From NCBI GenBank assembly GCA_031255075.1, contig JAIRTF010000182.1, positions 1 to 24,592 on the forward strand: DNA of 24,592 nt, in the 5' to 3' direction. Below the pieces are notes generated by a model that was not told the DNA's origin, ran no database searches, and saw only the letters and a program-made list of their open reading frames with translations. Made by a program: the position numbers and the translations under genes. Shown here one piece after another: positions 1 to 22,636 of the stretch. This stretch comes from Bifidobacteriaceae bacterium (GTDB lineage Bacteria > Actinomycetota > Actinomycetes > Actinomycetales > WQXJ01). Each line of letters begins with the position of its first letter. Within the stretch, counting starts at the first letter, position 1.

Positions 1-878
1 TAGGTGTACCAAGCCCCGGACTTGCGAACCAAGCCCTGATCCACACCCAGGTCAATCAGGCCACCCTCACGGGAAATGCCCTGGCCGTAGAGAATGTCAA
101 ACTCAGCCTGTTTGAACGGCGCCGCCACCTTGTTCTTGACCACCTTGACACGGGTCCGGTTACCGACCGGTTCAGTCCCCTCCTTGAGGGTCTCAATCCG
201 CCGCACATCCAACCGAACCGAAGCGTAGAACTTCAGCGCCTTGCCGCCGGTGGTGGTCTCCGGTGAACCGAAGAACACGCCAACCTTTTCCCGCAACTGG
301 TTGATGAACACAGCCGTGGTGCCAGAGACCGCCAAAGCGCCGGTCATTTTGCGCATCGCTTGGGACATCAGCCGGGCTTGGAGACCCACATGGGAATCCC
401 CCATCTCGCCTTCAATCTCCGCCCGGGGCACCAGGGCAGCCACCGAGTCAATCACCACGATGTCCAAAGCCCCAGAGCGCACCAGCATGTCAGCGATCTC
501 CAAGGCCTGCTCACCGGTGTCCGGCTGGGAAACCAGCAGATCATCAGTGTTGACACCAAGTCTGCGGGCATAGTCCGGGTCCAGGGCATGTTCCGCATCG
601 ATGAACGCCGCCACACCGCCGCCCTTCTGGGCGTTGGCCACCGCATGCAACGCGACCGTGGTCTTGCCGGACGCCTCCGGGCCGTAGATCTCAACGATCC
701 GGCCGCGTGGCAGTCCGCCAATCCCTAGCGCCACGTCCAACGCGATTGAGCCAGTCGGGATCACCTCTACAGCAGCGTGGGTTTGGTCACCCAGCCGCAT
801 GATTGATCCCTTGCCATATTGGCGGTCTATCTGCGCCAACGCGCTGGCCAGAGCGCTGGCCTTGTCCATCTGCGCCAT
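1..878 (-). CDS. recA: Recombinase RecA (3' end runs off the window)
   Basis: Manual minus-strand translation from ATG 878 (AAGGAG upstream): [30 protein letters not shown]...[20 protein letters not shown] (Walker A)...IDAEHALDP...[34 protein letters not shown]...[34 protein letters not shown]. Absent from the ORF track because its stop lies outside the window. Confidence 0.99.
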
Positions 879-996
879 CTGTTGCTCCTTACTTCGGCTG
901 AGCCCGCGTCTGCGGGACCTATTCAGGCTAGCCCCGACCTCTGTCACCGTAAGGCGCAACTCGCTTGCCCTGGGGAAAACCGCCAGGCGGAGGCTG

Positions 997-1680
997 TCAG
1001 ATGGAGCCGTCGGAGCGCCGTGCCTGGGTCCGCACCATGACCTCCAACAGGTAGGCCTGGTCAGCCGATTCAGCCTGGTGGATGCCATCTTGGGCCAAGT
1101 CTTGCGCCACAATCGCGCCAACAGCGTGGGCGGCGGCGCTAACCGCCAAGGTTCCGGCTTCATAAATCTGGTCGCGCACATCAAACGCCGTGCGGCTGGC
1201 AAGCGCTACGCGGGCAGTCATCCGCGCCACCCAGTCCATTTCGAAGCCGCAGGCCGGATGGGCCGCCAAGGCCAGTAGCGATTGAGCTGAAGCCAGTGCG
1301 GCTTCCAGGGAATCAACGCGCCGGCGCAGAGCCGTGCAGGCCTTCTCTGCCGCCATCGATTCGGCGTCGGCTGCGGCGGCTGCGGCTGTCAAAACCCGGT
1401 CGAAGACATTTCTGGCTTCCTCTAACCGGCCTTGATCGGCCAAATCGCCAATGTTTATGGCTACTTGATCGGCATGCTCTCCCCAAGCCTGGGCGCGCCC
1501 GGCCGATAACTGAACTGCTTCTAACAAACTGCTTGCTTCGCCCGCACCTAGCTCAGCTGCGGGTGGTGCATAGCACGCGAGTAAGGCCTCTTGAGCCCGC
1601 GCGAGCCGCCAATCGATGGATTGTTCAAGGCGGTCGCGCAACTCGTTGTGTGGTGAGTCGTCCAACTCCTCCGGGGTCAT
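997..1680 (-). CDS. Hypothetical Ala-rich, probably all-helical protein (227 aa)
   Basis: C-terminal part of the 313-aa ORF. GAGGAG lies 9 nt before ATG 1680 ([20 protein letters not shown]...). The longer ORF would overlap tRNA-Gly. No recognised motif. Confidence 0.7.
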
Positions 1681-1923
1681 ATGGTTTTTCTCCTCTAGTG
1701 GTTTCAGCTTGTGGCTTACGTAGAGGCCAACTCGCGTCTTTGGCGGATTATTCCCGCGGCCGAATGTTTTCTTGAAGACTTTTTCTGGCGGCCTGTTCTG
1801 GGAGCGCAGCCCCACCCGGCGCCCAGCCCAGTGGAGCCTTCTGTCACGGCCTATGGGAGCCGCGGCGCGGCATCGAGCACCGAGGCAGGTAAGATGCATT
1901 AGCCCGCTCCGCTGGACGGGCGC

Positions 1924-1994
1924 GCGGGCGTAGCTCAATGGTAGAGTCCTAGCCTTCCAAGCTAGCTACGCGGGTTCGATTCCCGTCGCCCGCT
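1924..1994 (+). tRNA. tRNA-Gly(TCC)
   Basis: Acceptor stem GCGGGCG/CGCCCGC, D arm TAGCTCAATGGTAGAG, anticodon stem CTAGC/GCTAG with loop CT-TCC-AA, T loop GGTTCGATTCC. CCA not encoded. Confidence 0.97.
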
Positions 1995-2054
1995 CTGGCG
2001 CACGATGCCGCTCGGGCCGTAACCAAAGCCCGCGGCGTTCGCTTGGGCCATCCA

Positions 2055-2128
2055 CGGGATGTGGCGCAGTTTGGTAGCGCACCTGCTTTGGGAGCAGGGG
2101 GCCCCGGGTTCAAATCCCGGCATCCCGA
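2055..2128 (+). tRNA. tRNA-Pro(TGG)
   Basis: Acceptor stem CGGGATG/CATCCCG, D arm TGGCGCAGTTTGGTAGCGC, anticodon stem CCTGC/GCAGG with loop TT-TGG-GA, T loop GGTTCAAATCC. Confidence 0.97.
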
Positions 2129-2359
2129 CAGATTCGACGGTGAAGTCCCTGGTCAGGGCGGCTGCCCCCTAGCGAAGGAGGTGCCGGGATTTGAGCAAGT
2201 CATCAAATAGTCATCACTATGGGTCCATGAAGGGGTGCCCCTGACGGGGCTCCTCCGGCCGGTGGCAGGGGTTTGCGGTCAACTGAGGGTACCGCGCGGC
2301 AACACCCCGATGCGCCCAGTGGGCTCACCCCGCCTACATAGCGTGGGTACGCTGGGTTC

Positions 2360-2638
2360 ATGACAACGCTCAACGTGAAAATGCGGGACTCAGACAAGGC
2401 CATCATCCAAGAGGCCGCCCGCAACGCGGGCATTACCGCGTCCGCGCTGATGGTCAACGCCTCGCTGCAAGCCATCCGCCAAGGCTCGCTCACCGTGGAA
2501 CTCGGCGTGGCGCCATCGGCCGCGCTGCGGAATGCGCTGGACTCACCCCGCAGCAGTGACGCATCCTTCGACACTGGAACGCCCGAGGAAGCGGCTGCCA
2601 TGGGTGACTACCTGAACCGGCTCGTCAATGCGGATTGA
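2360..2638 (+). CDS. Ribbon-helix-helix-like protein (antitoxin/DUF1778/CopG-like), 92 aa
   Basis: N-terminus MTTLNVKMRDSDKAIIQEAARNAGITASALM has the alternating beta-strand then helix-helix pattern of RHH proteins. Overlaps the next ORF by 11 nt. Confidence 0.6.
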   Translation: MTTLNVKMRDSDKAIIQEAARNAGITASALMVNASLQAIRQGSLTVELGVAPSAALRNALDSPRSSDASFDTGTPEEAAAMGDYLNRLVNAD

Positions 2639-2795
2639 CTACGCCAAAGCGGTCGAGGAGGCGCTGGCCAAGCTCCGCCCTGCCCAACGCCGGCCCGACT
2701 GGCTGACCCCAATCTGGCAACGCCTTGGCGCGCGGTGGAAGGAGCTTAGAACCCCCCCAGTTCCGCCTGCGGGAGTTGGCCTGCATTACATGTGA
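2628..2795 (+). CDS. Small hypothetical protein (55 aa), possible degenerate RelE/ParE-like toxin
   Basis: Manual translation MRIDYAKAVEEALAKLRPAQRRPDWLTPIWQRLGARWKELRTPPVPPAGVGLHYM. The start overlaps the RHH gene; the TGA overlaps the GTG of the next ORF (GTGA). Below the ORF-track cutoff. Confidence 0.4.
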   Translation: MRIDYAKAVEEALAKLRPAQRRPDWLTPIWQRLGARWKELRTPPVPPAGVGLHYM

Positions 2796-3004
2796 TCTTG
2801 GTCACAGCTTTCGCGCTGGGCCTACTTTCACGCTGGTCTGCCAAATGCCTCGGCGCGGCTGTGACCAGGCAATATGTGGCTCATTTGGCCTCCGGTGCGC
2901 CCGCCGATGGCTCTTCTGCTGGCCGGCCTGCTGGCCGGCGACACCCGGCCGCCGCCGCATACTTGATAGCACGGCGTACACCCCAAGCGGTCATCGCTGC
3001 ATAG
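2792..3004 (+). CDS. Small hypothetical protein (70 aa), hydrophobic N-terminus
   Basis: GTG start coupled to the previous stop (GTGA). No recognised motif. Confidence 0.3.
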   Translation: MILVTAFALGLLSRWSAKCLGAAVTRQYVAHLASGAPADGSSAGRPAGRRHPAAAAYLIARRTPQAVIAA

Positions 3005-3175
3005 GTAATTCAAACGCTAAGGAGTCTCGAGACCCAGAAGGCGGGCGCAGTCGCTCGCGGGAATCATGTTGGACGCGCGTCGATTCATCGGGCCGGTGAT
3101 GACGCCGCCCCAACTCTGGGCGCGTCACCACATGGCAGGAGAGTCTTAGGAGCATTGGTTGAGGGTTTGACTTAG

Positions 3176-5149
3176 ATGTATATGAAGCGCAATGTCGCTG
3201 TGGCGACGCTCATGTTTGGGTTGGCGGCTGTCATGACTGGCTTGGTTTGCGAGCTGGCCGACAGGCAGTTTCCCTTGTGGTTGGGGGCCTCGCGAGGCGT
3301 TAGCCTCGACTTTGAGCACGCTTCCGTCGATGGGCCCCAAGCCCTGAACGAGCTCGCGGCGGCTAGTCGGGACTTCGACCTTGGCTTGGTGCGCGTGGCA
3401 CCTGAGCTCGATGGCGACAAGCCGGGCGACGTGCTGGTGGCGCTCGAAGAACCTACCCAGCTGCCGCCGACGATACCTAGGTTCGGACGCCAGTCCGAGG
3501 CGCGTTCTGCGGACACATCCTATTTGGAGGATTCCCCGCCAGACGGCCGCTACCTAATCCTGGGCTCTGGGGCGGACGTTGGTGGGTTCACCGACTGGCT
3601 GGAGGATCGCGGCATCGCCCAAACGTGGTCGGAACTGTCACCGATGAACACCGTGCGAACCGTCGTTACCCAGCCGGCGTTCCGGGCGGCCTTGACCGCC
3701 ATCGCGCTCCTCATGGTGGTCGCTTCGTTGGGCTGGTACTGCTCGCGTGCGCGAGGCCGCGCGCTGCGTGTGCTGGGCGGCGCGCCCGCGCTGCGCGTCC
3801 ACTTTGAGGACGTCTCACTCCTGGCATGGGCCACCGCTGGGGGCGGCGTGGTGGCTGTGGTGATGGCCGCCGGCGTGGTGACGCTCACCCAAGGTCCGGG
3901 GTTCGTGCTGCCTTACCTGCGCATCCTGGCGCCTTTGGCGGCGTTGCTCCTGCTCGCAGCCCTTGTGGTGGCATGCGCGGCATCGCTCATTGCGCGCCCT
4001 CGTCCGGATCTGGTGGGCCGCCGCATACCAGCCACCCTGCCCCTTGGCAGGCCTGCCGCCGTGGTAATGGTGGCCGCGCTGGCAGTGACACTATTCTCGG
4101 TGGCGCCCAGTTGGTCGACCTTACAGGCGCAGCGCGACACAGCCCGCACCCTCGGCCAATGGGAACTGCTGTCCGAGCAGACCGCGCTCGTGTTCGGGCC
4201 CAACGTATCCGAGACCGACTTCGACGATATGAAGCCATCCATCAGGGCTCTGACGCTAGACGCGCAACTCGACGGAGTGGCGGCGCTGTCGATGCTGCAG
4301 TCGGCAGAGTATCTCGACAGAAACGAAATCAACCACGACGGCTTCGACGGGGTCGCCGTCGTCAACCCTTTGTGGCTCGGAATGATCGGGCTGGACCCAG
4401 CGGATCCTGACAGCGGCTTGCGGGTCGTTGACCGCGCGGAGATGCCTGGTCCACTGTCTGATTCGTTGGCCGCTGACTTGGAAGTGTGGATGGACCAGGC
4501 CCCGGCTGGCGCGGGCCTCCCCGAAGGCATGCGTCTGCTGGCCCCCACCGGCGACCAGGCGTTGCCGATGATCGAGATGGGATCAGGCGGCACGGTCGCG
4601 TTTGTGTCCCATCCTCTGCTGGTCGTTGTCGAGGATCTCGACGTGTTCACCTCGGGCTTCTTGATCTCGACCGCTTCGAGCGCCAACTTGACTGTGGTGG
4701 GGCTTGAGCGGACGCGCGAGCTGATCAGGGCGGCGGGGATCAGCGGCATCGTCCGGCCCGAACGATTGGCGGAAGGAGGCGTCATGGCGGCGCGCTACAG
4801 CGCTGCGTTCGCATGGGTGCAAGGCGCAGCCTTGGTGGCCCTTATTGCCGGCCTCGTTGCGGCGCAGATCGTCAACGCCCGCGTGGTGGCCACCCGCAAC
4901 GCGCGCCGCGACTACCCGATGAGGCTCGACGGCGCGTCATGGTTACGTATCCGAGCCCGGCGCCTCGCAGCGGAAACCACCGTCTGCGGCCTGGTGGCGC
5001 TGGCCGCCGCCGCGGTCGCGTTCCGCCGGGATCAGCCGGGCTTTCTCATCGTCCTGGCGGTGGCAGCCGCCGCAGCGCTGGCCGGCGCCGCGGCGCATCT
5101 AGCCGCTTCCGAAAATGCCTTCAAAGCGGTCAGCCGCCGCGAACTCTAG
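3176..5149 (+). CDS. Large integral membrane protein, bacteriocin-associated (lactococcin 972/DUF1430-like) ABC permease type
   Basis: 657 aa: N-terminal hydrophobic segment, extracytoplasmic domain, about 4 TM helices, second soluble domain, 3-4 C-terminal TM helices. Immediately upstream of a short ABC ATPase. The family call rests on architecture and context only. Confidence 0.6.
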   Translation: MYMKRNVAVATLMFGLAAVMTGLVCELADRQFPLWLGASRGVSLDFEHASVDGPQALNELAAASRDFDLGLVRVAPELDGDKPGDVLVALEEPTQLPPTIPRFGRQSEARSADTSYLEDSPPDGRYLILGSGADVGGFTDWLEDRGIAQTWSELSPMNTVRTVVTQPAFRAALTAIALLMVVASLGWYCSRARGRALRVLGGAPALRVHFEDVSLLAWATAGGGVVAVVMAAGVVTLTQGPGFVLPYLRILAPLAALLLLAALVVACAASLIARPRPDLVGRRIPATLPLGRPAAVVMVAALAVTLFSVAPSWSTLQAQRDTARTLGQWELLSEQTALVFGPNVSETDFDDMKPSIRALTLDAQLDGVAALSMLQSAEYLDRNEINHDGFDGVAVVNPLWLGMIGLDPADPDSGLRVVDRAEMPGPLSDSLAADLEVWMDQAPAGAGLPEGMRLLAPTGDQALPMIEMGSGGTVAFVSHPLLVVVEDLDVFTSGFLISTASSANLTVVGLERTRELIRAAGISGIVRPERLAEGGVMAARYSAAFAWVQGAALVALIAGLVAAQIVNARVVATRNARRDYPMRLDGASWLRIRARRLAAETTVCGLVALAAAAVAFRRDQPGFLIVLAVAAAAALAGAAAHLAASENAFKAVSRREL

Positions 5150-16527: not shown

Positions 16528-16613
16528 CCAGGACCTCCTTCGATTTGCCTGCGGCACCGCTGCCGCATCCGCACTTGGACCTGAGGTTCGCCACGCTGCC
16601 GAACCACCTTCCA

Positions 16614-16631
16614 TACTTAGTACACTAAGTA
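16614..16631. promoter_or_regulatory. Palindrome TACTTAG-TACA-CTAAGTA, candidate GntR operator
   Basis: AT-rich perfect 7-bp inverted repeat in GC-rich DNA, directly upstream of the GntR gene, with TTGACG on the minus strand at 16645-16640. Confidence 0.6.
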
Positions 16632-16745
16632 CCCTGGCCCGTCAAGACCGGCCCGGCCGGCCAGGGATGCGAGGCTCTGCCAGCGGTGGCAGTTAGCCGC
16701 GAAGGCACCGGGAATTGGGCGGTTTCCGGTGGCTCTTTCCGGGGT

Positions 16746-16774
16746 GGAATAGACAGCTGGCTGAGGCTGTTGAA
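16746..16774 (+). promoter_or_regulatory. ECF-sigma-type promoter GGAAT-N18-GTTGAA (copy 1)
   Basis: GGAAT 16746-16750, 18-nt spacer, GTTGAA 16769-16774. The same arrangement recurs upstream of the second paralog. Confidence 0.65.
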
Positions 16775-16892
16775 TCCGAGCACGTCCTGGGAAACCAGGC
16801 TGGGAACGTTTGGTGGCGAATGCCGCGACGGGCAAGGCAGGCGTTCCTAGGCAGACCCGCGCGGCTAGCTACAAGGAGATGAGCTTCTCAAG

Positions 16893-17582
16893 ATGGAAAA
16901 CATACCCAACACGGTGGTCATGGTGACCGAGCAACCCCGGCGCCGGCGCTTCGCCGGCGTGATTGGTTGTATTGCGCTTGGCGCGGCCTTGGTGGCTGGT
17001 ACCACCCTGGCAGCCTTTACTGACCGCGAATCGGCCCGCTTTGGCGATGACAAAGGCATCAGGACCGCCAACCACAACATCCAGATCCGCCAGACGCCGG
17101 CGAATCCGTCGGATACAACGGCTCCCTGGTTCGACACCGATGCCGACAACTACGGCGAAGACCCTGACAAAGCCTCGGCGCTGGTGCTGGACCTGACCGG
17201 CGGCCCGTTGCTTCCCGGCGATACGACACATCGGTACAAGGCAGCGTTCCAGGTTCGCAACGCGCCAGGCTCCCAGGACACCGACCTCAAGATCCACTTC
17301 GAAAACGCGGTGGCCGCAGGCCAGCCAGGCTATGTTGACGGCGACCTGGCCAAGTGGTTGACGATCAGCGCTTTCTGGACGCCAGATACGTACTGGTTCG
17401 ACCGCACATCCTCCTTCCAGAGCTTCGACAGCTTCGCCGAAGCCGAAACCGTTGGCGTGAAGGTAAAGGCCGGCACGGTTTACAGAGTCGAGGTCTACGT
17501 CTCCCTGGATGCGGCGGCTGACTCTTCGGTGGCCAACCGAGAGATAGCTCTCAAGGCGGTGGTTACAGGCCAAGCGGTCTGA
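16893..17582 (+). CDS. SipW-dependent signal peptide protein, TasA/CalY-like fibre subunit 1 (229 aa)
   Basis: RRRR, hydrophobic helix, then AGTTLA|AFTDRES (B. subtilis TasA: GGTWA|AFND). LLPGD motif (TasA: LKPGD). No LPXTG or TM anchor. Two genes upstream of a SipW-type peptidase. Confidence 0.8.
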   Translation: MENIPNTVVMVTEQPRRRRFAGVIGCIALGAALVAGTTLAAFTDRESARFGDDKGIRTANHNIQIRQTPANPSDTTAPWFDTDADNYGEDPDKASALVLDLTGGPLLPGDTTHRYKAAFQVRNAPGSQDTDLKIHFENAVAAGQPGYVDGDLAKWLTISAFWTPDTYWFDRTSSFQSFDSFAEAETVGVKVKAGTVYRVEVYVSLDAAADSSVANREIALKAVVTGQAV

Positions 17583-17597
17583 ACCGAACCCGCAATA

Positions 17598-17637
17598 GGC
17601 GGTGTGGTGGCCGGCCCGGTCCGGTAGCCACACCGCC
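17598..17637 (+). terminator. GC-rich stem-loop after subunit 1
   Basis: GGCGGTGTGG / CCACACCGCC 10-bp perfect arms, followed by GCTTT. Confidence 0.65.
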
Positions 17638-17701
17638 GCTTTGCATATACCCGCAGGTCAAAGCCGTTCTGCGAACAGATTTGATGGATTTCGCTGAAAC
17701 G

Positions 17702-17730
17702 GGAATAGCTGGATATCCCCAGCCGTTGAA
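17702..17730 (+). promoter_or_regulatory. ECF-sigma-type promoter GGAAT-N18-GTTGAA (copy 2)
   Basis: GGAAT 17702-17706, 18-nt spacer, GTTGAA 17725-17730. 123 nt to the ATG, versus 124 nt for copy 1. Confidence 0.65.
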
Positions 17731-17847
17731 CCTGGTTGACGTACCAGCAAACCAAACCGGAAGTGTTCGGATGTGAATGCCGTGAAGGGCGGCCCGGACG
17801 CAGTTCGGAAAGCCGGTACGGCCCAACAAAGGAGACAGAACCCTCAC

Positions 17848-18537
17848 ATGGAAAACAATCCCCAAACCGTCGTCATGGTGGCCGAACAGCCCAGGCGGCG
17901 GCGTCTAGCCGGAATGATCGGCTGCATATCGCTGGGCGCGGCCCTGCTGGCCGGCACCACCATGGCAGCCTTCACCGACCGGGAATCAGCTCGTTTCGGC
18001 GACGACAACAATGGCATCAAGACCGCCTCCCACAACATCCAAATCCGTCCCGAACAGGTCGGCAACGCTTCGGACGCGTGGCAGGACACGGAGAATGACA
18101 ACGCCGGCGAGACAGAGGCCAACAAGGCGCCGATCAACCTGGTGCTGACCGGCGGCCCGATGCTGCCAGGCGACGAGACCTCCGCCTACAAGGCCAAGTT
18201 CGAGGTTCGGGTTGCCCTTGAATCGGGGGATTCCAAGCTGACCTTGAAACTCGAAGACCTGCTGGCCAGCACCGCTGACGCCATCGGCACCGGCGACCTG
18301 GCCGACTGGCTGAAGGTCGATGTCACTTGGAACTCAACCAAGGGCAAAACTGGCACCACAACGGGCAAAACCTTCAAGACCTTGAGCGGGACCAATTCGG
18401 TAGTCCTGACTGACCGTGCAGTCCCCGGAGAGGTCTTCACCGTCGGCTTCACCATCTACTTGGACGGCGCAGCGGATTCTTCAGTTGCCAACCGGGCGCT
18501 TGACCTGAAAGCGGTCGTCACCGGCGAGGCGATCTGA
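17848..18537 (+). CDS. SipW-dependent signal peptide protein, TasA/CalY-like fibre subunit 2 (229 aa)
   Basis: AAGGAG upstream of ATG 17848. AGTTMA|AFTDRESARFG, PMLPGD. Clear paralog of 16893-17582. Confidence 0.8.
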   Translation: MENNPQTVVMVAEQPRRRRLAGMIGCISLGAALLAGTTMAAFTDRESARFGDDNNGIKTASHNIQIRPEQVGNASDAWQDTENDNAGETEANKAPINLVLTGGPMLPGDETSAYKAKFEVRVALESGDSKLTLKLEDLLASTADAIGTGDLADWLKVDVTWNSTKGKTGTTTGKTFKTLSGTNSVVLTDRAVPGEVFTVGFTIYLDGAADSSVANRALDLKAVVTGEAI

Positions 18538-18543
18538 GCCAGA

Positions 18544-18586
18544 CCCGCGCCAGCCGGAGGCCTTGGGCCAAACCGGCTGGCGCGGG
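18544..18586 (+). terminator. 14-bp perfect stem-loop between subunit 2 and the signal peptidase
   Basis: CCCGCGCCAGCCGG (18544-18557) / CCGGCTGGCGCGGG (18573-18586). No U-tract follows. Confidence 0.6.
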
Positions 18587-18640
18587 CCACCGGCCCGCAG
18601 ATCAAACAGCAAGCAACAAAACCAAACTAGGAAACAGCAA

Positions 18641-19228
18641 ATGAAAACCCTCAGAATCTTCCAACACATCGGATTGACCATCCTCTCGGTGGTGGGAGTC
18701 ATCACCGTGCTGGCCACCGCCTTCTGCCTGGCCTCTGGCATCCGGCCGGTGATCGTAGCCTCCGGGTCAATGGCACCTTCCATCCCCACCGGCGCCGTGG
18801 TGTTCCACAAGACCGCCCCAGCTTCAGACCTGAAAGTGGGCGACGTGGTGACCGTGCCCCGGCCGGGCTTGGAAGGGGTGGTGACTCACCGCATCACTTC
18901 GATTGAGCCGGCTGAAAACGGCCAATACACCATGACCATGAAGGGCGATGCCAACAAGTCGCCAGACCCCCAGCCCTATGTGGTGGACAAAGCCGACAAG
19001 ATGTCTTTCAGCGTGCCGCACCTGGGCACGGTCCTGTCATGGATGCGGACCCATCCGATCCAAACCGCGGTGGCTCTGCTGGCGTTGCTGGTGTTCAGCC
19101 TCTGGCCGGCCGCCCGCTTCACAGTGCACCTGCCTGACGGCCGAGTGCTGCGCAACCTCTCCCGCCGCGAGGCTGAAGCCCACTGCGCGGCAATCACCAA
19201 CACCAACCCCCAACCATCCGCCAGCTGA
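18641..19228 (+). CDS. sipW: Signal peptidase I, SipW/archaeal-ER type (Ser-His dyad)
   Basis: N-terminal TM, VASGSMAPSIP (catalytic Ser), VGDVV, VTHRI (His in place of Lys), MKGDANKSPD, C-terminal TM. Confidence 0.9.
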   Translation: MKTLRIFQHIGLTILSVVGVITVLATAFCLASGIRPVIVASGSMAPSIPTGAVVFHKTAPASDLKVGDVVTVPRPGLEGVVTHRITSIEPAENGQYTMTMKGDANKSPDPQPYVVDKADKMSFSVPHLGTVLSWMRTHPIQTAVALLALLVFSLWPAARFTVHLPDGRVLRNLSRREAEAHCAAITNTNPQPSAS

Positions 19229-19254
19229 GCGGCACACCCTAGGAGGCAAAACCG

Positions 19255-20886
19255 ATGAACGCCACGCTACGCCAGGAGCGGCGGATCACCGCGATCGCGG
19301 TGGCCATCGCCGTGGCGTTCGCCTGCCTCCTGACGCCACACCTGGTCCGGAACACCATGGCGGCCTTCCTGGATAACGAATCGGGGCGGTTCGGGCCGAT
19401 GCAGTTCGAAATCCCAGAACCCTCGCCGATGATCGCCACCAAGCGGAACAGCTACCTGGGAGCCACGTTTGTGGCCCTGTCAGACACCGGCCATGCTGCT
19501 TACGTGTGGGGCTACCGCGGCACCGGAATGAGCGGCACCGGCCAGGAGACCGTAGACGCGACATCGGCCGTGTCCGTTGTGAAGCTGGAAGGCGACCGCA
19601 AGATGGTCACCATCACCGGTGGCACTACCATGGCCACCGCCCCAGACACTATGGGCGCCATTGGCGTTCTGGCTTCCGATGGAACGGTCTGGACCTGGGG
19701 CAATGCCGCCACACCGGCCCGCTTGGGGCGCGCCATAGTAAATGGCGACAACTCCAAACCCAAACAGGTCATCTTCCCCGACCTAGGCGGCGCCAAAGTG
19801 ATTGACCTACAGTCCGGCGCCAAGGTGTTTGTGGCTCTGACTGACACCGGTGATGTTTACACCTGGGGTCACTACTTCGACGATAACTCCTCGACCCCTG
19901 GCAAGGCAGAGGGCGACTTGGGGCAGGGCCCGAAGGCGGAAAGCAGCCGGCCTCGCAAGATCCTGACCGGCATCCACTCCATTGGCACGGGCGTCCAGAA
20001 TTCCTGGGCCATCGCCAGCGACAAATGGTCAGTTCTGATCTACGCGGAAGGCATGGATTCGAAGGCCGCACCCCAAGAGTTCCCCGGCAAGGATGGTGCC
20101 ACTGTGCTCTTCTGGGGTCGCGACCACACCCACTTTGGATCAGCCTCAGGTGATCCGGCGCTGAAAGACCAAATCCATCCCTCGCCGGTGCCTGTGGCCA
20201 AGACAGCCGGGCTGAACAAGCTGCTGCAGGATGGCACCAAGGCCGGAGATGACAACACCAGTTTGGGCAAAGCGCTTGGCTCAACAGAGGACAAGGGCAC
20301 CTTCCGCCAGCTTGGCGGCATCTCCTACGGTTCCTACGCTCTGCTGAAGGATGGTTCGGTCTACGCCTGGGGGAACCCCACGTACGGCGGTTCGGGCGGC
20401 GCGGCAACAGTCGATCGGCCGGGAGATACCCCAATGAAGGTCTCCCTGCCAGATCCGACCAACGGATACCAGCAAGCCACAATCAAACAGGTCGTTTCAG
20501 TCCGCAAGCTGGTCTTTATGCTGGACACAACCGGCACCGTGTGGATGTACGGCTACCTCTACAGGGCCGAGCGGGAGCTTTTCCCCAAGGCTGATGGGAC
20601 AACGCCCGCGGCCAGCAGTAACACAGCCATCGGAAACCCCATCAGAATTGCGGGCGCCCCCGGCACCGGTTGGGCAGCCGGAGAGATCACTGGACTTGGC
20701 TCACCTGGCGAAATGACACTGATGGTGACCCATGCGGACGGCTCAGTCTGGTTGGCCGGCGGCGGCAACGCGAGGACCCCCACGAACACAAGGGCGCTGG
20801 TCCGCAACCACTGGAAGGACAACACTGTCCCGACCACCGCCGCGGTGCCGATCACCAAGACGGACCTTTCCAGCCTGCCGAAATAG
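19255..20886 (+). CDS. Secreted RCC1/BLIP-II-like beta-propeller protein with SipW-type signal peptide (543 aa)
   Basis: AGGAGG RBS. RNTMA|AFLDNESGRFG. Repeats: VALSDTGHAAYVWG, VLASDGTVWTWG, VALTDTGDVYTWG, ALLKDGSVYAWG, MLDTTGTVWMYG, THADGSVWLAG. No cell-wall anchor. Confidence 0.8.
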   Translation: MNATLRQERRITAIAVAIAVAFACLLTPHLVRNTMAAFLDNESGRFGPMQFEIPEPSPMIATKRNSYLGATFVALSDTGHAAYVWGYRGTGMSGTGQETVDATSAVSVVKLEGDRKMVTITGGTTMATAPDTMGAIGVLASDGTVWTWGNAATPARLGRAIVNGDNSKPKQVIFPDLGGAKVIDLQSGAKVFVALTDTGDVYTWGHYFDDNSSTPGKAEGDLGQGPKAESSRPRKILTGIHSIGTGVQNSWAIASDKWSVLIYAEGMDSKAAPQEFPGKDGATVLFWGRDHTHFGSASGDPALKDQIHPSPVPVAKTAGLNKLLQDGTKAGDDNTSLGKALGSTEDKGTFRQLGGISYGSYALLKDGSVYAWGNPTYGGSGGAATVDRPGDTPMKVSLPDPTNGYQQATIKQVVSVRKLVFMLDTTGTVWMYGYLYRAERELFPKADGTTPAASSNTAIGNPIRIAGAPGTGWAAGEITGLGSPGEMTLMVTHADGSVWLAGGGNARTPTNTRALVRNHWKDNTVPTTAAVPITKTDLSSLPK

Positions 20887-20912
20887 GTCGCTCGAGCGTG
20901 TGATCACTCAAG

Positions 20913-20950
20913 GCACCCCGAAACCGCAGCTGACTACGGGTTCGGGGTGC
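20913..20950 (+). terminator. Stem-loop ending the SipW cluster
   Basis: GCACCCCGAA / TTCGGGGTGC 10-bp arms, 26 nt after the stop codon. Confidence 0.6.
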
Positions 20951-21268
20951 GCGGCATCGGCCACCGAGACATGGCACCGGGCCACCAGGGAGGGCCTGCG
21001 CCGCCCCTGTGAGCGGCGCGAAGTGGCGGCGCACCAACAGCCAGAGTCCAAGGGCTAACACTTGAAGCGGCTTTCGGGCTAACGTCTAGGGGTCGGATAA
21101 TCTGCCCGCCCGCAACCAGCGCCGCGCGATTCCCGGCGCGGTGGCCCACCCCCAGGGGCGAAAAGGCGGAGCCAAAGCGCTGAACCGACGCGGCCCAAGG
21201 TGGCCGCGAGCGACATCCGGCAAGTCCTGGTAAATCCCGTGCCGCTCCCGAGCGGCAAACGAGCATGA

Positions 21269-22636
<1,368 letters not shown>

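Follow-up and report, generated by a model that had tools for sequence, protein, structure and literature searches.

A secreted RCC1-like propeller protein with a TasA-type N-terminal strand: a candidate end component of an actinobacterial fibre

What might a secreted beta-propeller do in a gene cassette for a TasA-type fibre? The question is raised by a 24,592-nucleotide contig (JAIRTF010000182.1) of a Bifidobacteriaceae bacterium (assembly GCA_031255075.1), the whole of which we call the window. Four consecutive genes on its + strand, at 16893-20886, make up a TasA-type fibre cassette. Two of them encode jelly-roll subunits and the third a dedicated SipW-type signal peptidase; the fourth, after a spacing of 26 nt from the peptidase gene, encodes a protein with an RCC1-like propeller, here termed P0001. 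The system is described here from its genes, and all structural statements on P0001 and the subunits refer to predicted models. The reading that we favour, and consider fairly probable, is that P0001 is a minor component of TapA-like kind which donates a strand without accepting one; it would occupy the groove left open at one end of the fibre, acting as nucleator, as distal binding head, or as both.

The open reading frame (ORF) of P0001 (19255-20886, + strand) gives a stop-free translation of 543 amino acids (aa). Residues 1-36 (19255..19362) constitute a signal peptide, with a helix at residues 4-25 in the model. Cleavage is predicted in the sequence T-M-A|A-F, at about A36|A37. The prediction follows two precedents: the AMA|TL site for signal peptidase I reported in AbpA (PMC9245690), and mature TasA, which starts at residue 28, before F29. 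T34, at position -3 relative to this site, is nearly invariant among the orthologues. The mature protein would begin with the predicted donor strand AFLDNESGRFG (residues 37-47; 19363..19395), having an aromatic residue at +2 and Asp at +4. This is followed by a flexible Pro-rich linker (residues 48-66; 19396..19452) that varies in both length and sequence among orthologues; as far as residue 63, its predicted local distance difference test score (pLDDT) stays under 50. The remainder, residues 67-543 and the stop codon (19453..20886), is assigned by Pfam, AlphaFold2 and Foldseek to a seven-bladed RCC1-like beta-propeller with inter-blade insertions. P0001 itself has no membrane or wall-sorting signal.

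The N-terminus of P0001 closely resembles those of the two subunits. Residues 34-47, TMAAFLDNESGRFG, are identical at 10 of 14 positions to TLAAFTDRESARFG of subunit 1 (16893-17582) and at 11 of 14 to TMAAFTDRESARFG of subunit 2 (17848-18537); the subunit counterpart of AFLDNESGRFG is AFTDRESARFG. In the genome, which is 72% complete, six-frame translation gives 11,452 ORFs with 80 aa or more; the subunits supply the best non-self match in this set, the runner-up reaching 9/14, a result that bears out the likeness of mature N-termini on which a preliminary description of this locus had been built. At five to six of the identical positions P0001 and the subunits use different codons, indicating that the likeness has been kept at the protein level and reflects no recent copying of DNA; recent gene conversion as its source is ruled out on this ground.

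The similarity is restricted to the N-terminal part. BLASTP of P0001 against subunit 1 aligns residues 7-47 alone (E 0.002), and profile-profile comparison by hhalign, using alignments of ten propeller orthologues (A1) and ninety subunit homologues (A3), shows 32 shared N-terminal columns with a probability of 86.6% and E of 4.5e-6. The LPGD and KAVVTG motifs of the subunits have no counterpart in P0001, as the preliminary description had stated, and beyond the first ~45 residues P0001 has no likeness to the subunits.

Are the features expected of a donor strand conserved? Nine orthologues of P0001 were found, at 29-46% identity. Asp at +4 (D40) is invariant in the 10 aligned propeller orthologues, and the aromatic residue at +2 is kept in eight of the nine orthologues of P0001, with P0005 having its aromatic residue at +1 in that alignment. 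Both the aromatic residue at +2 and the Asp at +4 are likewise seen in every readable propeller start at the loci of named genomes. Donor strands of AbpX are reported to bear this hallmark too, where it is described as structurally critical for donor-strand complementation (bioRxiv 10.64898/2026.01.04.697558), and the two positions correspond to F29 and D31 of TasA (PMC9674648). Furthermore, the strands of subunit and propeller vary together. Both read D-x-E-S-x-R-F-G in the window and D-x-E-Y in its nearest relatives, and both lack the Glu in the Cellulomonas/Leifsonia clade. Pairings of strands from the same locus outscore permuted pairings, the observed sum being reached by 250 of 40,320 permutations, a figure that is indicative only as the loci are related.

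Does the body of P0001 allow a strand to be accepted in turn? Three Pfam models of RCC1 type were tested (PF00415, PF13540 and PF25390). RCC1_2 and RCC1 match above their cut-offs (45.4 bits against 22, and 30.6 bits against 21.7, respectively), and WD40_RLD gives E 1.7e-26 and 93.8 bits, under its cut-off of 150. The AlphaFold2 model has a predicted template modelling (TM) score, pTM, of 0.82, with beta strands extending from residue 71 to 537, in keeping with the earlier placement of a Pro-rich linker followed by RCC1-like blades from about residue 70. Foldseek matches the model to RCC1, UVR8 and the RCC1-like domains of HERC proteins with E values of 7e-18 to 1e-16 and TM scores, normalised to the target, of up to 0.76. 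As repeat models score above their cut-offs and the modelled fold has seven blades, P0001 is classed as an RCC1-like repeat beta-propeller. No match to a TapA/YqxM family model was found for it in NCBIfam or Pfam. Residues 22-63 have pLDDT below 50 and are unpacked against the propeller in the model; folding of the N-terminal peptide into its own propeller, an objection raised at the outset, is not what the model predicts. As modelled, the body of P0001 is a closed, complete fold that lacks an acceptor groove.

The presumptive partners of this strand were modelled too. Subunit 1 (P0036, 229 aa; 16893..17582, + strand) scores 24.2 bits with TIGR04088, a curated 34-position model of SipW-dependent-type signal peptides with a cut-off of 19 bits, and subunit 2 (P0037, 229 aa; 17848..18537, + strand), which is 51-52% identical to subunit 1, scores 20.3 bits. 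In subunit 1, cleavage is predicted after A40, which would expose the predicted donor strand AFTDRESARFGDD (residues 41-53; 17013-17051, + strand). The longest ORF of subunit 2 starts at GTG 17773, probably too far upstream; the homologous start MENNPQ is at ATG 17848 and gives 229 aa, as in subunit 1. An AlphaFold2 model of subunit 1, calculated from a 90-sequence alignment (pLDDT 85.3), has fibre-form TasA (8AUR) as its top match in the PDB (Foldseek E 8e-4). VIA-align superimposes the two with Z 8.9 and a root-mean-square deviation of 3.0 over 135 aligned residues, 1.6 Z above the next match. Further structural matches are the archaeal bundling pilus protein AbpA, the cannulae of Pyrodictium and chaperone-usher pilins, all of them from filaments polymerised by donor-strand complementation. 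On the evidence of the models, the subunits are jelly rolls like fibre-form TasA, with an A-F-T-D start. The Pfam model of TasA/camelysin, PF12389, does not match the subunits, and thus their relation to TasA is at the level of fold and motif. A search of PDB sequences with the subunit profile also gave no match.

Insertion of the P0001 strand into a subunit was explored by complex prediction, taking subunit residues 41-229 together with P0001 residues 37-75, in three runs with three controls. The median interaction prediction score from aligned errors (ipSAE) was 0.32 (runs 0.32, 0.32 and 0.71), and the best control gave 0.07. Agreement of contacts between runs was at least 86%, with a partner pLDDT of at least 48. 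In calibration, 58 of 80 solved complexes attained the mark, as did 2 of 110 mismatched pairs; only seven of those 80, and both of the mismatches, did so with scores of 0.60 or less. The prediction weakly supports strand insertion. A multimer prediction of the kind called for in the preliminary description comes out above its controls with a weak score, and this pass may stem from resemblance to TasA-type fibres of solved structure.

How widely is the propeller associated with such fibres? In the named-genome scan, orthologues of P0001 are carried by metagenome-assembled genomes (MAGs) labelled Bifidobacteriaceae and Propionibacteriaceae, and by Georgenia alba, Cellulosimicrobium cellulans, several Cellulomonas, Isoptericola, Lysinibacter, several Leifsonia and one Streptomyces sp. 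To judge by their isolate codes, the MAGs may derive from termite guts. We examined the 28 best RCC1-orthologue loci, which come from seven named actinobacterial genera and from MAGs. At 27 of them, searches with hidden Markov models (HMMs) located subunit genes next to that of the propeller, together with a SipW gene where the contig reaches far enough; at the sole exception the locus is cut by the contig edge. The gene order is not fixed. Subunit, SipW and propeller follow one another at loci L001, L002, L003 and L022; subunits, propeller, a further subunit and SipW at L005 and L006 (Cellulomonas biazotea); and at L023 the propeller precedes three subunits and SipW.

The association also holds when approached from the subunits. 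In the family to which the window belongs, strong subunit matches occur in five other genomes, and precisely these five have a full-length propeller orthologue. A subunit-centred search of 1.84 billion proteins returned 272 representatives at E up to 0.001, and of five contigs with distant subunit homologues, three carry an RCC1 gene with the same start, the remaining two being shorter than 4 kb. A word-based homologue search with subunit 1 found the two copies in the window alone. The subunit profile found no match in a 400-genome sample of the class, in which seven candidates per genome were scored, a result that indicates rarity at most. The RCC1 propeller is the constant third component of the actinobacterial cassette sampled. 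The preliminary description had expected interchangeable tips, and none were seen in this clade: in all related loci sampled, whether from the subunit or the RCC1 side, the leader-bearing protein that is not a subunit is an RCC1 propeller.

Some loci depart from a single cassette. In the Propionibacteriaceae bacterium MAG Md513_bin123 the whole subunit-SipW-propeller cassette is present twice in tandem (L050:5551-10637), and the two copies differ slightly in their strands (ARVAGN/GKMAIA and ARLAGN/GRVAIA). Tandem pairs of propellers occur at some other loci of Propionibacteriaceae MAGs (L004:6001-8764, L048:4860-8482 and L049:6830-9752). At L004 and L049 the strand motif is present on both tandem propellers (VFVDIEAAYFE, VFVDIESGSFD); at L048 it was read for the second gene only. 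The genome of the window itself has a second, different TasA-like cluster on contig C64 (387-2611; L007), consisting of tandem proteins of ~200-240 aa (ORFs 488-1222 and 1444-2088, and a cut ORF 3-491). The leaders end in GGTTFAYWSD and GGATMALWSK, and one protein scores 27.9 bits with TIGR04088. That contig is only 2.6 kb in length, with no peptidase or accessory gene visible on it.

If P0001 closes one end of a fibre, what lies at the other? In multi-subunit relatives a truncated subunit-like protein of ~200 aa is always encoded directly upstream of the propeller gene (for example L040:8934-9536 and L005:5420-6004, with ORFs ending just 5' of the RCC1 gene at L053, L058, L060, L061, L063, L064, L068, L069 and L071). 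This mini-subunit has an ordinary signal peptide and no AF-x-D strand. Its body aligns with the core of the subunits over the stretch between the PG motif and the last strand (hhalign probability 91%, E 9e-7), and its C-terminus comprises LAxTG, a hydrophobic stretch and an Arg-rich (RRR) tail. LAxTG is the motif of class E sortases in Actinobacteria. Judged by its sequence, the mini-subunit looks like an acceptor-only, wall-anchored base. With donor strands running from the propeller toward the LAxTG anchor, the propeller would be the distal tip of the fibre in the relatives that have this anchor, in line with the tip position suggested in the preliminary description.

The position in the window may be otherwise. 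A search of the 72%-complete genome for a homologue of the LAxTG mini-subunit found none, the matches being sorting-signal-like C-termini of two giant proteins. The fibre of the window may be an unanchored matrix fibre like that of TasA, with the propeller mainly its starter; alternatively, the propeller itself may hold the fibre to something.

Locus L005 has a further feature 5' of its fibre operon, at 174-3321. There the gene for a second S24/S26-like peptidase overlaps that for a 634-aa RCC1 protein, which has an ordinary signal peptide and no AF-x-D start, and a 231-aa protein with an LALTG sorting signal follows.

For P0001 we infer export, cleavage, strand insertion and ligand binding, in a scheme that would run as follows. 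Once exported, the propeller protein would lose its signal peptide by a cut at about A36|A37, exposing AFLDNESGRFG, a near copy of the donor strand at the N-terminus of the subunits. The exposed strand would enter the open beta-sandwich groove of a subunit, as the N-terminus of TapA does with TasA, a step to which the complex prediction lends weak support. Since the propeller is closed and offers no groove, P0001 would be found only at the groove end of the fibre, in one copy per fibre. With the first groove filled, the strand of that subunit would be free to capture the next subunit, and in this P0001 would act as nucleator. The propeller, held on a Pro-rich linker of ~19 residues, would be left exposed as a binding head. 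In the multi-subunit relatives, the opposite end of the fibre is probably held by the LAxTG-anchored, strand-less mini-subunit, with the propeller as distal tip.

How well does this scheme stand up? A number of results weigh against it. The TIGR04088 model finds no match at E up to 1 in P0001 or its nine orthologues. An HMM of the strand only, built from 90 diverse subunits, places P0001 at chance (E 0.55), in the company of chance matches to Obg (E 0.43) and HflX. In view of these two results, the significance of the strand rests on its likeness to the subunits of its own locus, its position after the signal peptide and its conservation among orthologues. According to the calibration of the complex prediction, a pass as weak as that obtained proves false more frequently than true, save where the guess had been probable from the start. 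There is no wall anchor in the operon of the window, so that P0001 may be a starter rather than a tip there. Lastly, the motif shared after the cleavage site could serve for recognition by the peptidase only.

This last point can be extended into an explanation of its own, in which the propeller is simply a second cargo of SipW. The sequence T-x-A|A-F-x-D-x-E would then be a determinant for the peptidase, and the mature propeller would be released free, as a lectin, a binder or an enzyme-like factor. The conserved part of the motif does surround the cleavage site, the linkage of the propeller to SipW is as tight as that to the subunits (with the 26 nt gap), and at L005 the second S24/S26-like peptidase adjoins an RCC1 protein that lacks the AF-x-D start; the weakness of the complex prediction also fits. 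However, signal peptidase I recognises its substrates by the -3/-1 rule, and the likeness within the locus of the window, which is one of protein sequence, extends to +11 (ES.RFG), beyond what such an enzyme usually reads. In TapA, the one case tested, a comparable likeness functions as a donor strand (PMC10151520), and in relatives an acceptor-only anchor encoded beside the propeller would be pointless unless the other end were capped. We therefore regard release as free cargo as unlikely. We think it more improbable still that the propeller protein is no displayed tip and serves as a transient assembly chaperone, or as a cell-proximal holdfast at the base of the fibre whose propeller binds an envelope polymer. 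Its strand would then be donated so that subunits close to membrane or wall stay competent for assembly. TapA has been called a 'specific chaperone' as well as an anchoring and assembly protein (PMC9674648, PMC10151520), the operons of the window's clade contain no other anchor, and fusion to wall-binding SLH domains is frequent among bacterial RCC1 proteins. Against this, the geometry in the relatives with an LAxTG anchor puts a donor-only protein at the far end, and P0001 carries neither a membrane nor a wall-sorting signal.

The proposal of a donor-only end cap, which the preliminary description had advanced, is thus upheld in part. It is favoured by a likeness confined to leader and strand, an N-terminus left unpacked in the model, the TasA-like fold of the subunits, the linkage at 27 of 28 loci, the precedent of TapA and the anchor in relatives. 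Binding to the subunit, for which the complex prediction gives weak support, and anchorage, for which the window locus has no gene, are where it falls short.

The closest precedent is in Bacillus subtilis. The N-terminal strand of TasA (residues 28-38, with F29 as key residue) inserts into the next subunit, and TapA, which is processed by SipW and has a homologous N-terminus together with a complete Ig-like fold, is present only at the filament end and initiates assembly (PMC9674648, PMC10151520). TapA (YqxM, encoded in the operon tapA-sipW-tasA) and P0001 have in common that they are minor secreted proteins with a SipW neighbour, a donor-strand homologue after the signal peptide and a fold that does not accept a strand. 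They differ in the body, which is a V-set Ig-like beta-sandwich in TapA and a seven-bladed RCC1 propeller in P0001, and no sequence homology was found between them past the leader and strand. The hosts differ too, TapA being from Bacillus and P0001 from an actinobacterium whose subunits are too diverged for PF12389. Having an RCC1 propeller as its body and no match to a TapA/YqxM model, P0001 lies outside the TapA family, and on our reading works like TapA.

Other accessory proteins of TasA-superfamily loci are comparable. For AbpB of the archaeal bundling pili a role as initiator and adhesin has been suggested, in which it gives the first complementing strand and displays distal domains (PMC9245690), and at AbpX/Tafi loci the predicted tip proteins are reported to differ in fold between lineages (bioRxiv 10.64898/2026.01.04.697558). 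As far as these sources describe them, those systems are archaeal or belong to Bacillota or Chloroflexota, and no RCC1 propeller tip is mentioned. In contrast to the AbpX/Tafi loci, the head domain in the clade of P0001 is constant (RCC1) across the actinobacteria sampled. The ends of chaperone-usher pili are likewise set by subunits that carry out half of donor-strand exchange, FimH and PapG at the tip and PapH and FimI as terminators. The polarity of FimH, which accepts a strand and donates none, is opposite to that of P0001, and the two kinds of system are evolutionarily unrelated, that of the window having neither usher nor periplasmic chaperone.

As to the head itself, BLIP-II of Streptomyces and the SLH-linked RCC1 proteins of Paenibacillus and Bacillus are extracellular seven-bladed propellers of RCC1 type that serve as binding modules. 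We know of no secreted bacterial RCC1-like propeller with a TasA-type donor strand or linkage to SipW, and among the papers searched none was found that links SipW and RCC1.

The remaining gene of the cassette (18563..19228, + strand) encodes a SipW-type (archaeal/endoplasmic reticulum-type) signal peptidase I, matching TIGR02228 with E 1.4e-22 and 80.3 bits against a cut-off of 51.85; the Bacillus SipW model gives E 9e-14, under its cut-off. The motifs SGSM, THR and GDAN can all be read from the translation, and the true start is likely ATG 18641. Past the second hydrophobic segment, the C-terminal tail of the peptidase (19130-19228) reads W-P-A-x-R-F-T-V-H-x-x-D-G-x-V-L-x-N-L-[ST]-R-R-E-A; the peptidases encoded at L001 and L002 have this conserved tail too, and that of L041 has part of it. 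A scan of 16600-21300 for promoters and terminators was uninformative.

In biofilms of Bacillus the main protein scaffold is formed by TasA-type fibres, and the superfamily spans bacteria and archaea; to our knowledge, the end of such a fibre is known experimentally only for TapA. The principle of a donor-only end component is thus already established by TapA and predicted for other TasA-superfamily loci, and what would be new here is an RCC1 propeller as the head, rather than a new kind of system. A bolder proposal, which we put forward tentatively and to which we incline less, is that several families of Actinomycetota have an undescribed type of pilus assembled by donor-strand exchange from SipW-processed TasA-like subunits, on a fixed plan of three parts: a shaft with between one and five kinds of subunit, an acceptor-only LAxTG base, anchored to the wall, that has been lost in the window's clade, and as the tip a donor-only RCC1 adhesin that binds a receptor. 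If true, it would be a Gram-positive counterpart of the chaperone-usher pili, distinct from the sortase-polymerised ones. A propeller-headed strand donor in several actinobacterial families, including the culturable Cellulomonas, Leifsonia and Georgenia, provides a testable model of how such a fibre starts, how it is oriented and what it binds, and on this reading one among the many secreted RCC1-like propellers of bacteria would for the first time have a function assigned to it.

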